DNA from: Candidatus Micrarchaeota archaeon
GTDB taxonomy: Archaea; Micrarchaeota; Micrarchaeia; Anstonellales; Bilamarchaeaceae
Direction of reading: 5' to 3'
DNA: 64,000 bases
NCBI GenBank assembly: GCA_018304385.1
Contig: JAGVWJ010000014.1
Span: 13,621-77,620, forward strand
Each line of letters begins with the position of its first letter. The first letter of the stretch is position 1. A program made the position numbers and the translations under genes. Positions 1 through 63,079 of this stretch are shown here, in pieces. The notes below the pieces were generated by a model that had not been told where the DNA came from, did no database searches, and was given only the letters and a program-made list of their open reading frames with translations.

Positions 1-1
1 A

Positions 2-823
2 ACTACAATTAAATTTCTTGAAGGAATTTCAAACAGCGCTGAAGGAACTCTGCCTGCCCCAACTGGCGCGCTCAAAGAAGCATTTGCTGAAGGAAGGCAA
101 GTTTCTGAACCTGAGATTTCAGATAAGGCTAACCTAGCTAATGCTGCAAAAAATGAATTGGAAGTACTTACTAAGCGATACGAAAATATTATAAAAAATT
201 TAATTGAGATTATAAAAAAGAATGGTATTAACGGAAAAATTAAGCAATATATACTCGAGGCTCTTTGTAATCATTTCATGGATAAAGGTAAATTTAAAGA
301 CTTGGGATTTTTGCTTGACCATAATGACCCTTTCATAAGAGTTAAGACAGCGCATTATTTAGTAGGCGTTGCTACCCTAGATGCTCCAGTAACAAAACTA
401 ATACACATCCCACCAGAGTTAAGAGAAAAGTTTAAGGTTGATTTTAATAAATTAATAAAGGTTTTCTTTGAGGTGCTATCTCCTGCTGCCAGTGCAATTG
501 ATGATCCCACAAGAATAGACATCAGATATACCGCGATCTATGGATTGAAGGTACTTGCAGGTAGAATAAAACCTGAAACGCTTAAAGAGAATATCTCTAA
601 CATTTTAGATATACTTAAAGAGGAAAAACTTGAATATGATGTTTATTGGCTTCTTAGAGATCTCATAGTAGATAAGAAGAAGAAAGAGGAGAAAGAAAAA
701 AATGCAAAAATAATTCTTAATGAGATAGAAAAACTTGATGAGAAAAGAAGGGAGATTCTCTCTAAATATGAAAACAAATATTGGTCTTTTTTAGAACTCA
801 AAGAAGGAAAAGGAGTGAGTTGA
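2..823 (+). CDS. hypothetical helical-repeat protein, 5' end outside window
   Basis: The frame of the 158..823 ORF stays open back to base 2, so the gene enters from upstream. It has HEAT-like helical segments (DPFIRVKTAHYLVG) and a K/E-rich tail, with no catalytic motif seen. Confidence 0.45.
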   Translation, partial: TTIKFLEGISNSAEGTLPAPTGALKEAFAEGRQVSEPEISDKANLANAAKNELEVLTKRYENIIKNLIEIIKKNGINGKIKQYILEALCNHFMDKGKFKDLGFLLDHNDPFIRVKTAHYLVGVATLDAPVTKLIHIPPELREKFKVDFNKLIKVFFEVLSPAASAIDDPTRIDIRYTAIYGLKVLAGRIKPETLKENISNILDILKEEKLEYDVYWLLRDLIVDKKKKEEKEKNAKIILNEIEKLDEKRREILSKYENKYWSFLELKEGKGVS

Positions 824-24857: not shown

Positions 24858-26078
24858 TTAATCAACTTTAAATATTTTTTTCGCTTCTTTAATCCCATCA
24901 CAAAGCTTATCCACATCTTTTTTATCATTATAAATATAGAAACTAGCTCTACTGCTAGCTGGCAATGCTAAACGCTCGTGCAATGGCATAGCACAATGAT
25001 GACCACTTCTAATAGCTACATTATATTCATCTAAGATGGAGGCAAGATCATGCGGATGAACACCATTAACAGTAAATGCAATAACACCTGCACGCTTTTC
25101 TGGATTTTTAGGACCAAAAATATTAACCCCGTTTATTTCTGTCATTTTTTGCAGTGCGTATTGAGTAATAATCTGTTCATGTTTTCTTATATTTTCCATT
25201 CCAAGTTTTCCAAGATAATCTATTGCAGCTCCTAAGCCAATCACACTGGAAGCTGGAGGCGTGCCTGACTCAAACTTAAACGGTAATTCGTTCCATTTTG
25301 ACTCTTCCACATGTACTTCAGAAATCATGTCCCCACCATACAAAAACGGATCCGTCTCTTCCAGCACTTGCTCTTTGCCGTATAATATACCTACACCAGT
25401 TGGACCAAGCATTTTATGACCTGAAAAAGCAAAAAAATCGCAATCAATTGCGCTAGCGTCTATTTGCATATGAGGGATACTTTGTGCGCCATCAACTAAT
25501 ACTTTTGCGCCCGCATCATGAGCAAGCTTACACAGTTTATTTACATTATTTAGAGTTCCAAGAACATTAGACACATGTGTGATCGCTAGTAATTTTGCAC
25601 CTTTTATTTTTTCAAAATCAGATTCTTTTAGTTCGCCTTCTTCATTTATGTCAATTATCTCAAGTTTTGCGCCTTTTTGTTTTGCTAATTGCTGCCATGG
25701 CACGAAATTACTATGATGCTCCATTATTGAAATAACTATTTTATCTCCTTTTTTGATATTTTTTTCTCCCCAACCGCGCATAACTAGATTTATGGATTCA
25801 GTAGTATTTTTCGTGAAAATAATCTCTTGCTCGCTTTTGGCAGATATAAAATCACGAACCTTGGTTCTTACATTCTCAAATTTCTCGCTAGCTTCTTCAC
25901 TTATTTTGTATATCCCGCGGTGTACATTTGCATTATAATTAGTATAAAATTCATTTACTGCATCTATTACTTGTTGCGGTCGCTGAGAGGTGGCTGCAGA
26001 ATCCAGATAAACAAGTGTGGGATTATTTTTAAAAATAGGAAAATCTTCTTTTATTTTATCGATGTTCATATTGCTCAT
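24858..26078 (-). CDS. sufS: cysteine desulfurase SufS
   Basis: PLP-lysine motif FSGHKMLGPTG and active-site RSGHHCAMP. 406 aa. Confidence 0.95.
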   Translation of the reverse strand: MSNMNIDKIKEDFPIFKNNPTLVYLDSAATSQRPQQVIDAVNEFYTNYNANVHRGIYKISEEASEKFENVRTKVRDFISAKSEQEIIFTKNTTESINLVMRGWGEKNIKKGDKIVISIMEHHSNFVPWQQLAKQKGAKLEIIDINEEGELKESDFEKIKGAKLLAITHVSNVLGTLNNVNKLCKLAHDAGAKVLVDGAQSIPHMQIDASAIDCDFFAFSGHKMLGPTGVGILYGKEQVLEETDPFLYGGDMISEVHVEESKWNELPFKFESGTPPASSVIGLGAAIDYLGKLGMENIRKHEQIITQYALQKMTEINGVNIFGPKNPEKRAGVIAFTVNGVHPHDLASILDEYNVAIRSGHHCAMPLHERLALPASSRASFYIYNDKKDVDKLCDGIKEAKKIFKVD

Positions 26079-26102
26079 TGCTCAAAGCCCATTGCTCACG
26101 GC
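26068..26102 (-). repeat. heptamer array, GC type, 5 units, spanning the sufC stop and sufS start
   Basis: Minus strand: gccgtga gcaatgg gctttga gcaatga gcaatat. It encodes the last residues of SufC (TAVSNGL-stop) and the first codons of SufS (MSN). Confidence 0.8.
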
Positions 26103-26834: not shown

Positions 26835-26950
26835 CGTCTTATGCCCTCCTTATGCTCAAGCACTAGAGTATCTCTTAGGTTAGCCGCAGGACCCACCGCA
26901 AAGCGGTTCCCCCGCGGCGGCCTTCTTATGTATTCATTATGTAAATAAAA
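26835..26950 (-). repeat. promoter-leader repeat, copy 4 (divergent variant upstream of sufC)
   Basis: It shares the 5' ttttatttacataatgaatacataagaaggccg and the 3' aaggagggcata..ATG. The central hairpin is replaced by a GC-rich structure (accgc-ttt-gcggt nested in gccgc...gcggc). Confidence 0.5.
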
Positions 26951-26985
26951 CCTTGGCCCAAAGCTCATGGCTCATTGCTCATGGC
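26951..26985 (-). repeat. heptamer array, GC type, 5 units, centre of the sufC/sufB divergent region
   Basis: Minus strand: gccatga gcaatga gccatga gctttgg gccaagg, followed directly by the ttttatttacata of leader copy 4. Confidence 0.85.
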
Positions 26986-31016: not shown

Positions 31017-31146
31017 GGTTTTATTAACATAAGTAATACCTAGGACGACCGACGTGGCATTAAGAAAATATAAGACCACGTCCCTATAGAGAATATAAGT
31101 AGAACGACGAATATGTAAGAATGAGAAAACAAAAGTATAATACAGC
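31017..31146 (+). repeat. promoter-leader repeat, copy 6 (immediately upstream of tRNA-Pro)
   Basis: ttttattaacataag..gaccGACGTGG-cattaagaaaatataaga-CCACGTCcctatagagaatataagtagaacgacg..aagaatgagaaaacaaaag, then tRNA +1 at 31147. The arms are 31051-57 and 31076-82. It lacks the GGAGG..catagATG tail of the protein-gene copies. Confidence 0.8.
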
Positions 31147-31278
31147 GGGATCGTGAGGTAACCTGGCATCCTGCGAGCTTGGGGTGTTCGTTATCTGAGT
31201 GCGCTTTTTAGGTAAAAAGTGCCCAAAAACTGGGACGCTAACTAAAAAGTCCCAGAAATTCAAATCTCAGCGGTCCCA
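31147..31278 (+). tRNA. tRNA-Pro(GGG) with a 59-nt non-canonical intron in the T-arm/T-loop
   Basis: Hand fold. Acceptor GGGATCG (31147-53) pairs with CGGTCCC (31271-77), followed by discriminator A. The D-arm is AGG..GG..CCT. The anticodon arm is CGAGC-TTGGGGT-GTTCG (anticodon GGG at 31181-83, G37). The variable loop is TTAT. T-stem CTGAG (31195-99) pairs with CTCAG (31266-70), with T-loop TTCAAAT (31259-65). The 59 nt at 31200-31258 interrupt position 53/54 (or 54/55). The mature length is 73 nt. Confidence 0.8.
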
Positions 31279-33292: not shown

Positions 33293-33366
33293 GCCATGAG
33301 CAGTGGGCAGTGAGCCGTGGGCCAACTCGTTTGGTGGCTCACTGCTCATGGCCCAATGCCCAAGGC
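33293..33366. repeat. inverted pair of GC-type heptamer arrays (5 + 5 units)
   Basis: Forward: gccatga gcagtgg gcagtga gccgtgg gccaact (33293-327). Reverse-oriented: tggtggc tcactgc tcatggc ccaatgc ccaaggc (33332-366). Confidence 0.85.
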
Positions 33367-33485
33367 AGAAATTATAATTTATGTTCTTTTGTTATTTTAA
33401 ATCTACGAATAAAAAGGGGAACTATATAAATATTTTCTTGAAAGAAATGATGCTCAAAAGATTTAGAGAGAATTTAAAGTGGGAG

Positions 33486-33515
33486 GTGAGGTGGAGCTTC
33501 GGCAAACCACCTCGC
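33486..33515 (-). terminator. hairpin immediately 3' of the 33517..33843 gene
   Basis: gtgaggtgg (33486-94) pairs with ccacctcgc (33507-15), with an inner gc-ttcg-gc tetraloop-like apex. It begins 2 nt after the stop codon on the minus strand. Confidence 0.5.
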
Positions 33516-33516
33516 T

Positions 33517-33843
33517 TCAAAAAACTGAAAAAAAGTAAAGAATTAGAATAAAAAGGGACAAAAACAACTTTACCAACCAAAAATCAAATCTGTGTTTATT
33601 TTTCATATCGCAAAATTTTGGTGACCAAACTAAAAACGCTATACCTGCCAAAAGGATGCGGCTTATTAATTTGAAATTGAACCCAAATACAAAAACTTCA
33701 AAAATAGACTCTATTACTAAAAAAAACAAAATTAATTGTATAAATAACGGAAGACGATTAGCTGAATGATAAAGCACATCATTCGTATTATAAAACCAGG
33801 GCTTGCCTTTATCCCAATAGTCAAACATAATATTTGATCTCAA
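33517..33843 (-). CDS. hypothetical small membrane protein
   Basis: 108 aa with 3 hydrophobic segments. No motif recognised. Confidence 0.4.
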   Translation of the reverse strand: MRSNIMFDYWDKGKPWFYNTNDVLYHSANRLPLFIQLILFFLVIESIFEVFVFGFNFKLISRILLAGIAFLVWSPKFCDMKNKHRFDFWLVKLFLSLFILILYFFSVF

Positions 33844-45984: not shown

Positions 45985-46019
45985 GTTTCCAGTTTTCAGT
46001 TTCGAGTCTTGAGTCCCCA
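45985..46019 (+). repeat. heptamer array, GT type, 5 units
   Basis: gtttcca gttttca gtttcga gtcttga gtcccca, lying 18 nt upstream (on the minus strand) of the lpdA start. Confidence 0.75.
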
Positions 46020-51274: not shown

Positions 51275-52579
51275 TTATTCATCCACCAAAAGTAATCCCG
51301 GATCCTCTAAATGTTTCTTAACTGTAGATGCAAATTTGGCAGCAGTTGCACCATCAATTACACGATGATCGAATGTAATTGATATATTCATTATTCTTTT
51401 TATTTCAATCTTATCGCTTACTGCTACGGGCTTATCCTGCATTCTATAAATTCCAAGTATCGCTACTTCTGGATAATTAATTATAGGTGTTGCAAATATG
51501 CCGCCAAGGCTACCGATATTTGTAACAGTAAACGAACCGCCTCGTAATTGATCAAGCGTTAGCGTTCGAGATCTTGCTTTAGTTGCTAATTCAAAAATTT
51601 CTTTTCCCAAATCAATTATTGTTTTTTTATCTGCATTTTTAAGAACTGGAACAATCAATCCATCTTCTGTGTCTACTGCAATGCCAATGTTATAATATTT
51701 TTTAAGTACCATTTCGCTTTTCTCTTCATCCAAACTGGAATTAAAAACTGGAAATTCACGCAAGGCAGCAATTAGTGCCTTAATTATAAATGGTAAAAAT
51801 GTTAGCTTAACCCCTTTTTGCTCTGCATATGCTTTCTCTTGCTCGCGGATACGCACTAAATCGCTAACATCTACTTCATCAACATGCGTAACATGCATTG
51901 CTGTTTGCATGCTTGTAACCATATGCTCTGCAACTGTTCTTCTTACTCCTCTAAATGGTAAACGTTCAACTTCACCTTCGATTATTATGGGGATTTTTTG
52001 AATTGCTTTTGGAGGTTGGCTTATTGCCTCTTGCTTACTACTTACTGTGGGGGTTGTTGCTATCGGAACTCCGCCTGCTGCCGCAGCCTTAATATCCTGC
52101 TCTGTCACGCGCCCATGCTCTCCAGTTCCTTTTATTTTTTCAATGTCAACTCCAAGCTCGCGCGCTAGCTTACGCACAAATGGAGTTGCAATAGCACGGC
52201 CAGAATGTGTTTCTTGGGGAATGAGTATCTCTACCTTGGGTTGCGAGTCTTGTGTCTCGGAACTCGGAGCTGGAAACTGGGCACTGGAAACTGACTTGCT
52301 TATAGCAGATGGCGCAGGGCCTTTCATTTCATAAACTTCTCCTTCCTGCCCAATTACAATAAGTATCTGCCCAACTTTTATTTTATCTCCTTCTTTTCCA
52401 AAAATTTTAAGAACAACTCCAGTTTTCGGGCAGGGCATTTCAACTACTGCCTTATCCGTCTCAAGTTCAGCAATAGGTTGGTCTGATTTTACTTTATCGC
52501 CTTCTTTTACGAGCCATTTCTTAATCTCGCCTTCGTGAATACCTTCGCCTAAGTCTGGAAGTTTAAATTCGTAAACCAT
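51275..52579 (-). CDS. dihydrolipoamide acyltransferase (E2)
   Basis: Lipoyl domain [12 protein letters not shown], a peripheral-subunit-binding domain ([12 protein letters not shown]) and a catalytic FDHRVIDGA. Confidence 0.93.
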
Positions 52580-52588
52580 TTTATCACT

Positions 52589-52663
52589 GTTGTGAGTTTG
52601 GAGTTATGAGTTTTGAGTAATTGTCAGTGCACAACTCACAACCCACAACTCATTACTCATAAC
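52589..52663. repeat. inverted pair of GT-type heptamer arrays (5 + 5 units) upstream of E2
   Basis: Forward: gttgtga gtttgga gttatga gttttga gtaattg (52589-623). Reverse-oriented: gcacaac tcacaac ccacaac tcattac tcataac (52629-663). Confidence 0.85.
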
Positions 52664-52693
52664 TATAATATTAATTTATATTAAGCTTTCTAT

Positions 52694-53500: not shown

Positions 53501-53595
53501 AAGAATAGAACTATGATGAAATATAATAAATTATCTTTTTTAAGTCTCAGATTAGTACTTCCGAAGGTAATTAAATCTTAATGCTTTTTTTCATG

Positions 53596-53623
53596 GTCGC
53601 GAGTCTCGCGTTCTAGGTCTTGC
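53596..53623 (+). repeat. heptamer array, GT type, 4 units, inside the IS element
   Basis: gtcgcga gtctcgc gttctag gtcttgc. Confidence 0.6.
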
Positions 53624-53691
53624 CTGATATATAGGATCAAATAAGGAAAAACACAACCTAGTTTTCACTGTTAAAAAATTTTCTGAGCTAA

Positions 53692-54846
53692 CTACATTGC
53701 AATTTTAAGGGGTAAAACAACAAGATTATTTCTGAAGAAGTCTATTAGCTCATCTTTTATCTCATCAACTGTTATTTTTATCTCAAAATTTTCTATGTTA
53801 AAATCATTCATCAATAAATTTATATAAACCCAGAAATTGTAAAGAAGCATAGAAATTACAAAGAAAAAATACCTGACATTTCCTTCTTTGCATGAAGTTT
53901 TTATTCTAAACTGATCATGAACTCTATGAGCTGTTTCAATCCCCCAACGTTGTTTGTACAAATCACTTAAGAGTAAAACCTCATTCCTATATTCTGAAAC
54001 AGGAATATTTGTAACGTATCCATAAATTTTCTTTTCTTCATGCTCATTATCTTCGATAATTACAAGATCAATCCATTCAGATTCTTTGTCTGAATTACTT
54101 ATTTCATAGGCCTGAAAGACAGCAGGCAACCCTTTACATTCCTTTAGTACTCTTTCAAAATGAGAATCCTGTTTTGCTGGCATTAGAAAGTTAATTCTTT
54201 TTTCCCTAAACAGTGCAAAAACATCAGTTTCATAGAATTCCCTGTCAAGAAGAACCAAATCAGGCTTTATCCAATATGCATTAAGAAATTCCAGTGCTTT
54301 GTTTATTAGTGCAATTTTGTCATCTCCTCTGTAAACAGGATAAGCAAATAGAAGAAACCTTATTCCATTTACTACTAATGCAACTGTAAAAAACTTGAAA
54401 CAGTAGTAAGTGCCATCCTTTGGCTCATAGCCAGTTACATATTCACAGTTTTTATCTCCATAAAATGCTTCTGGGGTAAAATCAAACGCAATTACTACTT
54501 TTATGCTTGGGAATCTTCTCTGAATAAGCTTGATTGTTCTCCTACTTACAAATGTTCTCATCATTCTTTCTATGTTTTCTATTGTTGTTTTGTCTTTTAT
54601 ATGCAATAAAGCATCATCAGCAGAAGGATAATTACCTGTTTTTGATCTGTTTTCTGTTGATTTATTGCTTATAGCTGCATCAACAAACAGTTTCATTATC
54701 TGGGCTGAGTTATATCTTGCATTGGCTCTAAACTGGAAAAGATTGTAATTCAGCAGCTCACGGCTGAGCTTTTCCAGTATATTCTTCTCTTTTTCCTGTG
54801 AGCTAAAGGGTTTTAAGTTTTCTGGGAGGAAAACCATAGTAGCCAC
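53692..54846 (-). CDS. DDE transposase (IS4 superfamily, ISH3-like)
   Basis: C-terminal YKQRWGIETAHR (the Y-R-E-K region of IS4-type transposases) plus DREF and LLDREFY acidic motifs. The start is GTG at 54846 or ATG at 54837. Confidence 0.8.
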   Translation of the reverse strand: MATMVFLPENLKPFSSQEKEKNILEKLSRELLNYNLFQFRANARYNSAQIMKLFVDAAISNKSTENRSKTGNYPSADDALLHIKDKTTIENIERMMRTFVSRRTIKLIQRRFPSIKVVIAFDFTPEAFYGDKNCEYVTGYEPKDGTYYCFKFFTVALVVNGIRFLLFAYPVYRGDDKIALINKALEFLNAYWIKPDLVLLDREFYETDVFALFREKRINFLMPAKQDSHFERVLKECKGLPAVFQAYEISNSDKESEWIDLVIIEDNEHEEKKIYGYVTNIPVSEYRNEVLLLSDLYKQRWGIETAHRVHDQFRIKTSCKEGNVRYFFFVISMLLYNFWVYINLLMNDFNIENFEIKITVDEIKDELIDFFRNNLVVLPLKIAM

Positions 54847-54886
54847 CTGTTTATTTTGGTCGTTCTAATCAGAATAAACAGTGGCT
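54841..54886 (-). promoter_or_regulatory. hairpin covering the transposase start region
   Basis: agccac(c)tgtttatt (54841-55) pairs with aataaacagtggct (54873-86), leaving one bulged base. It overlaps the GTG start. Confidence 0.5.
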
Positions 54887-54970
54887 ATATTTTAATGTGT
54901 TAAAAGAAGTTCGGAACTACTGCAGATGCTGCTAGAATACTTTTTAAATATTAAAGGTAATGATAAAATA

Positions 54971-62899: not shown

Positions 62900-63079
62900 G
62901 CTCCTGTAATCTAGCCCGGTCAAAAGAGTTTACAGTCTCGAGTCTCGAGTCTTGAACTATTTACTGATAGGATGTCAGACTCTCACTCTGAATACCCGAG
63001 TTCAAATTCAAACTTTTAGGTAAAAGTTTGATCAAAACTGCTTCGTTAATAGAAGCTTATGGAAATCTCGGCAGGAGCG
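62900..63079 (+). tRNA. tRNA-Glu(CUC) with two non-canonical introns (D-loop about 46 nt, T-loop about 59 nt)
   Basis: Hand fold. Acceptor GCTCCTG (62900-06) is perfectly complementary to CAGGAGC (63072-78), followed by discriminator G. D-stem ATCT (62909-12) pairs with GGAT (62970-73). The D-loop AGCCCGGTCAA differs by 1 nt from the canonical archaeal tRNA-Glu D-loop as I recall it. The anticodon arm is TCAGA-CTCTCAC-TCTGA (CTC at 62982-84). T-stem CCGAG (62996-63000) pairs with CTCGG (63067-71), with TTCAAAT at 63001-07. The exons sum to 75 nt. Intervening blocks are about 62924-62969 and about 63008-63066, and the exact junctions are ambiguous by a few nt. Confidence 0.65.
62928..62955 (+). 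repeat. heptamer array, GT type, 4 units, inside tRNA-Glu intron 1
   Basis: gtttaca gtctcga gtctcga gtcttga. Confidence 0.75.

Follow-up and report, generated by a model that had tools for sequence, protein, structure and literature searches.

Similar introns in different tRNA genes have been described in the Thermoproteales, where they were interpreted as the outcome of transposition (Fujishima 2010, Mol Biol Evol 27:2233, as summarised in PMC4090602 and PMC4033280). Nearer in lineage to the material treated here, the tRNA-Pro(GGG) gene of ARMAN-2 (Candidatus Micrarchaeum acidiphilum) carries introns at positions 53/54 and 59/60 (PMC3239211), 56% of the tRNA genes of this archaeon are disrupted, and its epsilon2 endonuclease cuts relaxed bulge-helix-bulge (BHB) motifs, including those at 59/60 (Fujishima et al. 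2011, PMC3239211; Hirata et al. 2012, PMC3488258). Micrarchaeota are known for tRNA genes with heavy disruption, for introns in the T-loop at 53/54 and 59/60, and for an epsilon2 endonuclease of broad specificity (PMC3239211, PMC3488258, PMC5829648); the ARMAN-2 studies did not report sequence-related intron families (PMC3239211, PMC3488258). Archaeal rRNA genes also have BHB introns, some of them mobile via homing endonucleases, as in the 16S genes of Thermoproteales (PMC4496867), and rRNA introns are known from Micrarchaeota (PMC6125680). Here we analyse a 64-kb stretch of Candidatus Micrarchaeota DNA (contig JAGVWJ010000014.1, positions 13,621 to 77,620; hereafter the window), in which a tRNA-Pro(GGG) gene and a tRNA-Glu(CUC) gene are each interrupted in the T region by a similar 59-nt intron. 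We consider it likely that these introns and their counterparts in related genomes form a single archaeal BHB intron family that has multiplied in a Micrarchaeota-like DPANN clade and is removed by the tRNA-splicing endonuclease of the host.

The window is AT-rich (GC 35.8%) and encodes EF-1alpha together with the archaeal cluster L18e-L13-S9-(RpoN)-tRNA-Pro-S2; its ribosomal protein S2 matches proteins named Candidatus Micrarchaeota, Bilamarchaeum or Iainarchaeum at 66-89% identity. Neither ARAGORN nor Rfam called a tRNA anywhere in the unspliced window, and the intron mode of ARAGORN returned nothing real, so that such genomes look poor in tRNAs when intron-aware tools are not used. A crude acceptor and T-arm scan and a GC-peak scan, which were not exhaustive, gave only tRNA-Pro and tRNA-Glu as credible interrupted genes. 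Spliced genes were judged by ARAGORN after in silico removal of their introns. BHB motifs were assigned by a rule under which each strand of a 4-base pair (bp) helix H must be followed on its 3′ side by a bulge of 3 nt, with the cut placed between the second and third nucleotides of the bulge, and similarity to the family was scored with a covariance model (R1) built from seven cores of the element. Loci from relatives' genomes or metagenome contigs are labeled with L-numbers (L114, L134, etc.). The two genes and their parts are as follows.

31147-31278, + strand: tRNA-Pro(GGG) gene including discriminator A, with one intron; called as tRNA-Pro(ggg) by ARAGORN once 31200-31258 is removed.
31200-31258, + strand: family intron of tRNA-Pro, 59 nt, at tRNA position 53/54; BHB, R1 match of 58.5 bits (E 1e-13).
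31201-31222, + strand: hairpin 1 of the Pro intron, GCGCTTTTT, AGGT apex (31210-31213), AAAAAGTGC; RNAfold and family covariation.
31223-31232, + strand: conserved linker of the Pro intron, CCAAAAACTG; AAAACTG is invariant across all aligned family copies.
31230-31255, + strand: hairpin 2 of the Pro intron, CTGGGAC, a 12-nt loop with CGCTAA..CTAAAAAG, GTCCCAG; RNAfold.
62900-63079, + strand: tRNA-Glu(CUC) gene with two introns; called as tRNA-Glu(ctc) by ARAGORN once 62923-62968 and 63007-63065 are removed.
62923-62968, + strand: intron 1 of tRNA-Glu, in the D-loop, 46 nt, outside the family; candidate BHB with H CGGT/ACTG, h of 2 bp and h′ of 3 bp.
63007-63065, + strand: family intron of tRNA-Glu, 59 nt, at tRNA position 59/60; BHB, R1 match of 57.6 bits.
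63008-63031, + strand: hairpin 1 of the Glu intron, TCAAACTTTT, AGGT apex (63018-63021), AAAAGTTTGA; from folds.
63032-63041, + strand: conserved linker of the Glu intron, TCAAAACTGC, with the invariant AAAACTG.
63040-63056, + strand: hairpin 2 of the Glu intron, GCTTC, GTTAATA, GAAGC, including the conserved CGTTAA; from folds.

A first-pass annotation of this DNA had described the two T-region introns as homologous structured elements of 59 nt that occupy the same tRNA position. Both lengths are correct (31200-31258 for Pro and 63007-63065 for Glu), and the placement given then for Glu, 63008-63066, yields the same spliced product since T63007 is identical to T63066. The common architecture is likewise as described, comprising a hairpin 1 of 9-10 bp capped by AGGT, then a linker rich in A that ends in AAAACTG, and then hairpin 2. 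The shared position is not borne out: the assigned sites are 53/54 for Pro and 59/60 for Glu, and there is no cut that both genes could have in common. By sequence, the Pro cut falls at 53/54 or 54/55, on the 5′ edge of the T-loop, and any Glu cut from 56/57 to 60/61 yields the same product. Global alignment of the two introns gives 36 identical columns of 60, with a score that was reached by 6 of 5000 dinucleotide-preserving shuffles (35 of 5000 for the local alignment). The introns are thus alike beyond chance and at least 10 further copies exist in related genomes, a combination that supports the proposal of homologous members of a mobile or duplicating intron family. The Glu sequence is not an assembly artifact, because an independent assembly from a 99%-identical strain (L134) carries an identical tRNA-Glu gene with both introns present.

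Copies elsewhere were sought with two sequence patterns. The strict pattern (TTTTAG(N)TAAAA, 7-11 nt, AAAACTGNNNCGYTAA; 23.5 specified bases) was derived from blocks common to the window copies and the first ortholog, and was run over a metagenome collection and viral contigs. It matched six loci in the metagenome collection, all in or beside tRNA or rRNA genes, and no viral contig. A looser pattern, TTTTAGGTAAAAN{6,10}AAAACTG (19 specified bases), was run over a species-genome collection, and its matches (>113 loci) were almost all bacterial chance matches. Archaeal matches to this pattern at L011, L012, L018, L019, L041, and L076 lie in coding or AT-rich DNA and lack the hairpin, and were not accepted into the family.

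The core of the element is about 45 nt long and consists of a variable stem base, T4-6, AGGT, A4-6, CC(A)AAAACTG, three nucleotides of any sequence, and CGYTAA, whereas the final ~9 nt of each intron, which pair with the exon, are site-specific. This core is present at position 59/60 of tRNA-Trp(CCA) (L123), of tRNA-Gly(GCC) (the identical loci L124 and L125), and of tRNA-Gln(CUG) (L126), and it also occurs in a 23S rRNA gene (L128). The tRNA-Leu(UAA) locus has two copies, one of them an antisense core 3 nt upstream of the gene and outside any intron (L127a), the other a diverged core at 37/38 within the gene (L127b). With the Pro and Glu genes, the hosts amount to tRNA-Pro, -Glu, -Trp, -Gly, -Gln, and -Leu, with insertions at 53/54, 59/60, and 37/38, plus 23S rRNA, and ARAGORN accepts the spliced Trp, Gln, and Leu genes. 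R1 scores for the copies at strict-pattern loci range from 44 to 62 bits, and 11 copies have E ≤ 1e-7 among the Micrarchaeota loci. Within the 64-kb window only the Pro and Glu sites score at this level, the next best site reaching 13 bits. A diverged intergenic core (24 bits) lies upstream of EF-1alpha at L114 5888-5925.

Pairwise identity among family members is 57-90%, versus 37-51% against unrelated introns. The Gly and Gln copies of one metagenome are 90% identical, and a 20-nt stretch of the window Glu intron, ACTGCTTCGTTAATAGAAGC, recurs unchanged in the tRNA-Gln copy. The window Pro intron is 68-69% identical to the Trp and Gly copies, compared with 69% to its own ortholog.

Two side observations concern the surroundings of these copies. 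The tRNA-Leu(UAA) gene (L127 5760-6097, − strand) extends over ~340 nt and has three introns, located in the D-loop region, at 37/38 (the family copy), and at 58/59, the last being 155 nt long and full of T-run/A-run hairpins. A conserved hairpin, GGAGGTGAGGTGGAGCTTCGGCAAACCA.., is found upstream of EF-1alpha both in the window (33481-33520) and in L114 (5846-5885), where it is directly followed by the diverged family core (GAAACTTTTGGGAAAAGTTTCATCAAAACT..).

Orthologs of the host genes were reached through the S2 homologs of relatives for the RpoN-tRNA-Pro-S2 loci and through homologs of the major facilitator superfamily (MFS) gene for the MFS-tRNA-Glu loci. The placement of tRNA-Pro between rpoN-like and S2 genes is shared with relatives. 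In L114/L115, whose S2 is 89% identical, tRNA-Pro(GGG) has a family intron at 53/54, and in L130/L131 the same gene has a degenerate 49-nt version that has lost the 3′ arm of hairpin 1. The tRNA-Pro genes of L117, L118-L120, L121, and L129 carry an unrelated intron at 59/60 instead. That of L132 (tRNA-Pro(GGG), 1670-1870) has introns at 53/54 and 59/60, both without the core, in addition to a D-loop intron. This arrangement is the published one of ARMAN-2 and suggests an ancestral origin, within the group, for the tRNA-Pro introns at both of these T-loop sites.

The tRNA-Glu(CUC) gene adjoins the same MFS gene in three related genomes, and the element occupies three positions in it and occurs in two orientations. 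In the window the copy sits at 59/60. L135 and L114 come from one genome, and the gene in L135 contains two copies, one of 60 nt at 37/38 and the other an inverted core within a 57-nt intron at 59/60 (43.7 bits, scored on the strand complementary to the tRNA). The stem base of this inverted copy, CTGCC/GGCAG, is that of the Pro copy in the same genome. In L136, a 117-nt family intron at 53/54 has ~60 nt inserted in the hairpin apex, and there is no intron at 37/38; after removal of the apex insert, its alignment scores are reached by 0-2 of 2000 shuffles. ARAGORN identifies the spliced L135 and L136 genes as tRNA-Glu(ctc).

Upstream of the window tRNA-Pro gene, and directly adjoining it, lies a ~110-nt module (31040-31146) that is conserved before tRNA genes in several related genomes. 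It contains a hairpin (GACGTGG..CCACGTC), then TATAGAGAA, then ..GAACGACGAA.., and then a TAAGAATGAGAA-like box. Elsewhere the module is found at L114 3300-3444, L118 ~1170-1445, L135 5880-5990 (− strand), L136 5830-5960 (− strand), and downstream of tRNA-Gly in L124; it is absent upstream of the window tRNA-Glu gene. Its role may be that of a promoter or leader, or it may encode a small RNA.

Intron 1 of tRNA-Glu contains a heptamer array, (AGTCTCG) x 2.7 at 62934-62952 according to Tandem Repeats Finder (TRF), as the first-pass annotation had noted. The array is real, but its proposed connection with the hairpin-bearing introns is weak, since it resides in a different, vertically inherited D-loop intron and similar arrays are intergenic. 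A homolog of this intron is present in L136 and a shortened version in L135. TRF also reports period-7 arrays with differing units, mostly intergenic, at 26070-26098, 26963-26985, 33300-33322, 45985-46015, 52270-52293, 52589-52618, and 52630-52664 of the window, and heptamers of the GAGTCTT/CAGTTTT type occur after tRNA-Gly in L124 and in the tRNA-Glu D-loop intron of L136. Nothing was found that ties the period-7 arrays to the hairpin-intron family.

The compensatory changes in hairpin 1, which had been noticed between the two window introns, hold across the family. The base of this hairpin (4-6 bp) has seven different sequences among nine copies, and when registered by hand, 38 of 39 positions are paired within copies, versus 53% when arms are swapped between copies. 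Note that the covariance-model alignment mis-registers the outer 3 bp where the linker is longer (63% paired), so the hand-registered value is the better figure. In that model-derived alignment the covariation score is 0.346, compared with 0.125 in shuffles (0 of 500 reach the observed value) and at most 0.133 for slid partners. The hairpin base of the L114 Pro copy is wholly different from that of the window yet fully paired (CTGCC/GGCAG), and the lengths of the T-run and A-run change jointly (4/4, 5/5, 6/6). Derivation of the stem base from the flanking exon was considered and rejected, there being no consistent relation across copies. The CGYTAA(AAAAG) block partly repeats the hairpin 3′ arm, and a continuous h′ helix can form between this block and the 5′ arm in Pro, L114, L130, L135, and L128. 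Likewise, in the BHB-constrained fold of the Pro intron, the loop segment CTAAAAAG can pair alternatively with hairpin 1 CTTTTTAG.

Both window introns can be drawn as BHB structures. In tRNA-Glu, helix H forms between exon TTCA (63001-63004, T-loop 54-57) and intron TGGA (63060-63063), and both bulges read AA-T (hyphens mark the cut). The outer helix h is the 5-bp T stem, and there is only one continuous base pair of h′, with hairpin 1 taking the place of h′ in a three-way junction. Written as (T)CAAACTTTT-AGGT-AAAAGTTTG(A), this hairpin begins 1 nt past the 5′ splice site. When the T arm and the intron are folded together without constraints, the minimum-free-energy structure is precisely this T stem (5 bp)-H (4 bp) BHB with AAU bulges (z = −4.0). 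In tRNA-Pro, H forms between exon TCTG (31194-31197, tRNA 48-51) and intron CAGA (31253-31256) with bulges AG-T and AA-T, and the 3′ strand of hairpin 2 overlaps the CAGA of H. Helix H of the L114 tRNA-Pro gene co-varies with the T stem (TCTG/CAGA to TCCC/GGGA), and 4 of 4 pairs are present in seven of the nine other copies checked. By these models the Pro and Glu BHBs count as relaxed motifs, which would be acceptable only to broad-specificity enzymes.

In the 23S rRNA copy the core is reversed. Positions 1-627 (+ strand) of L128 correspond to the 3′ end of archaeal large subunit rRNA (Rfam), with 62 extra nt in a hairpin loop near model position 2848, and excision of exactly 59 nt leaves a 3-nt consensus loop remainder. 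The core lies on the − strand (59 bits with R1, versus 13 bits on the + strand). Nevertheless, the + strand still folds into H (AAGC/GCTT) with a bulge of 3 nt and an h′ of 11 bp. The order of parts is 5′ arm, inverted linker, inverted hairpin, and distal arm, and the inverted core of L135 is bracketed likewise (TTTTAGG ... CCTAAAA). From this arrangement, the inverted copies are most simply explained by inversion in situ between the 5′ arm (..CTTTTTAG) and the distal inverted repeat (CTAAAAAG..). The L128 layout is the one expected if a sense copy had inverted between its arms, and such an event would explain why length and splice flanks were kept. The same rRNA gene fragment has a second insertion of 89 nt (L128 131-219, Rfam model position ~2628) that is unrelated to the family and has no clean BHB by the simple rule.

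Under the preferred reading, the intron would be transcribed as part of the pre-tRNA, four exon nucleotides would pair with four nucleotides near the intron 3′ end to form helix H, and the endonuclease, which is of the epsilon2 type in cultivated or sequenced Micrarchaeota, would cut after the second nucleotide of each 3-nt bulge. The exons would then be joined by an RtcB-type ligase. Hairpin 1, starting 1-2 nt past the 5′ cut, is predicted to occupy the place of h′, with the A-rich linker and hairpin 2 completing the three-way junction. Its pairing would be kept while its sequence drifts because the hairpin stands as h′ beside the 5′ splice bulge. The ~45-nt core would be copied among RNA genes fast enough that orthologous tRNAs of close relatives differ in its location.

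Several observations weigh against this reading. Excision is a prediction from sequence and fold, and the Pro BHB is weak, with an h of 1 bp and an h′ of 1 bp. Folded without constraints by RNAfold, Pro retains its T stem together with a hairpin 2 of 7 bp, and the BHB conformer lies ~4 kcal/mol higher. Helix H has only three of four pairs in the L123 intron and in the inverted 59/60 intron of L135. A Pfam scan of 30 of the 57 window open reading frames (ORFs) revealed no splicing endonuclease domain. Most family loci are metagenome contigs of unproven common origin, and the two non-intronic copies (L127a and the L114 intergenic one) are not predicted by a spread linked purely to splicing.

These non-intronic copies are better accommodated if the core is a small non-autonomous DNA element, comparable to miniature inverted-repeat transposable elements (MITEs) or repetitive extragenic palindromic (REP) sequences, that inserts in either orientation and persists mainly where a relaxed endonuclease excises it from the transcript, in introns already present or at BHB-competent sites of tRNA and rRNA genes, such that the core is the mobile unit and the intron a safe harbor. 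We regard this as a possible but doubtful alternative. It would also account for cores that run against the host RNA (L128 and the 59/60 intron of L135) beside those that run with it, for near-identical Gly and Gln copies that differ only in the exon-pairing last ~9 nt, for tRNA-Pro introns at 53/54 and 59/60 that predate the core (core-less in L132 and ARMAN-2), and for an L136 hairpin apex that tolerates a further ~60-nt insertion. However, there are no terminal inverted repeats apart from the hairpin and no target-site duplications flanking the copies. About 12 of 14 copies reside in tRNA or rRNA introns though intergenic DNA is far commoner, and the 64 kb examined holds two, both intronic. 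In addition, inversion in situ between flanking repeats accounts for the intronic inverted copies and for the 59 nt of L128, and the sole transposase-bearing insertion sequence (IS) of the window has unrelated ends. This IS (53552-54922, 1.37 kb) has a DDE_Tnp_1 transposase ORF (53692-54843, − strand) and imperfect repeats at its ends (AGTAsTTCCGAA), and its 4-bp target, CAGA, is duplicated; its insertion is recent, because the site is empty in the 99%-identical L134. The idea that the core is a MITE of this resident element was rejected since the IS ends are unrelated to it.

A role for the core in its own right, whether as a stable and possibly circular intron RNA or as a protein-binding site on pre-tRNA or DNA, is unlikely in our judgment. 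Conservation of apex and linker together with compensation in the stem base is the pattern typical of selected RNA structures, and excised archaeal BHB introns are often circularised, with some hosting C/D-box RNAs. But a search of Rfam 15, including its C/D-box small RNAs and group I/II introns, gave no match at the gathering threshold and none at E ≤ 5 over either intron, and inspection revealed neither C/D boxes nor a conserved ORF. The C/D-box reading was dropped on these two grounds. The functional intron-encoded RNA that had been suggested from the two window introns thus finds no positive evidence, and the inverted copies in the 23S rRNA and tRNA-Glu introns would give a different RNA. 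Orthologous tRNAs of close relatives are without the core or have it elsewhere, so no tRNA depends on it, and the element lacks the hairpin 1 3′ arm in L130 and has the 60-nt apex insertion in L136. We also discarded a reading of AGGT as a Shine-Dalgarno sequence serving a short ORF, as the small frames after it are not conserved between Pro and Glu on inspection. Much less probable still is convergence, by which unrelated or anciently diverged introns would have been forced alike by the needs of a BHB in an AT-rich genome, namely a helix by the bulge and a 3′ end complementary to the T-loop. It is true that pairing with TTCA/TTCG or the T stem constrains the 3′ ends (..GGAAA, ..AGAAA, ..TGAAAA), that the unrelated 59/60 introns of tRNA-Pro in L117, L118, L121, and L129 also end in AAACTGAAnn, and that T-run/A-run hairpins are frequent in such introns. 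Nevertheless, the conserved TTTTAGGTAAAA apex, the CC(A)AAAACTG linker, and CGYTAA lie outside the BHB pairing and are common to three tRNA positions and rRNA. Moreover, the 23.5-base pattern met only six metagenome loci, all at tRNA or rRNA genes, and identity between introns of different tRNAs reaches 90%, against 37-51% for introns outside the family.

One further stretch of the window stands apart from the tRNA genes. Positions 26860-26945, between divergent sufC-like and sufB-like genes, reach 80% GC (..ccgcaggacccaccgcaaagcggttcccccgcggcggcc..) in a 36% GC genome and have no Rfam match; the stretch may be a small structured RNA.

Compared with the systems described at the outset, the family resembles that of the Thermoproteales, as far as the latter is summarised in later papers, in that similar introns recur across different tRNAs, implying recent gain by copying. 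A host with a broad-specificity splicing endonuclease would be a further resemblance, if the enzyme here is like that of the relative ARMAN-2. It differs in its host lineage, which is Micrarchaeota-like DPANN rather than Crenarchaeota. Relative to those later summaries, it also differs in having a defined core, made up of a covarying hairpin capped by AGGT, the A-rich linker, and CGYTAA, and in that this core also turns up inverted, between genes, and within an intron of 23S rRNA. With ARMAN-2 it shares the phylum-level group, the tRNA-Pro(GGG) T-loop introns at 53/54 and 59/60, and 59/60 introns in other tRNAs, but the 59/60 intron tested there measures 13 nt, against 52-61 nt for the two-hairpin elements described here. 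The L128 insertion is bounded by a BHB, and its removal restores consensus rRNA, as with archaeal rRNA BHB introns, yet at 59 nt it encodes no protein and is the reverse complement of the tRNA-intron core. Like MITEs and REP palindromes, the elements are short and non-coding, form hairpins, exist in multiple copies, show compensatory changes in the stem, and are found in both orientations; unlike them, they have no terminal inverted repeats, target duplications, or cognate transposase, and are nearly confined to introns of stable RNAs. Our literature searches returned no sequence-defined intron family in DPANN and none common to tRNA and rRNA genes. We regard the finding as a known kind of archaeal intron spread in a new lineage, which exceeds the Thermoproteales precedent in its changes of orientation and in the copies located in rRNA and between genes.

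To our knowledge, the Thermoproteales are the only documented case of tRNA intron spread, and the present clade would be a second, independent one that bears on the origin of non-canonical tRNA introns. It is useful in this respect for its short recognizable core, for the same tRNA gene having the element at differing positions and orientations, for the rRNA copy, and for a stem base that acts as a 'barcode' of sub-lineages. Gain, loss, relocation, and inversion can be counted on a phylogeny, and the introns offer concrete substrates for an endonuclease of the epsilon2 type. A further reading, which we hold only tentatively and judge less likely than not to be correct, is that the ~45-nt core is a protein-free selfish DNA element that depends on being spliced out and has colonised tRNA, rRNA, and sometimes intergenic DNA. 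If so, the core would flip and yet stay excisable by an endonuclease needing just a 4-bp helix and two bulges. New introns would then be made, and their positions moved, in present-day DPANN archaea, which would provide a natural system for watching the gain of BHB introns.

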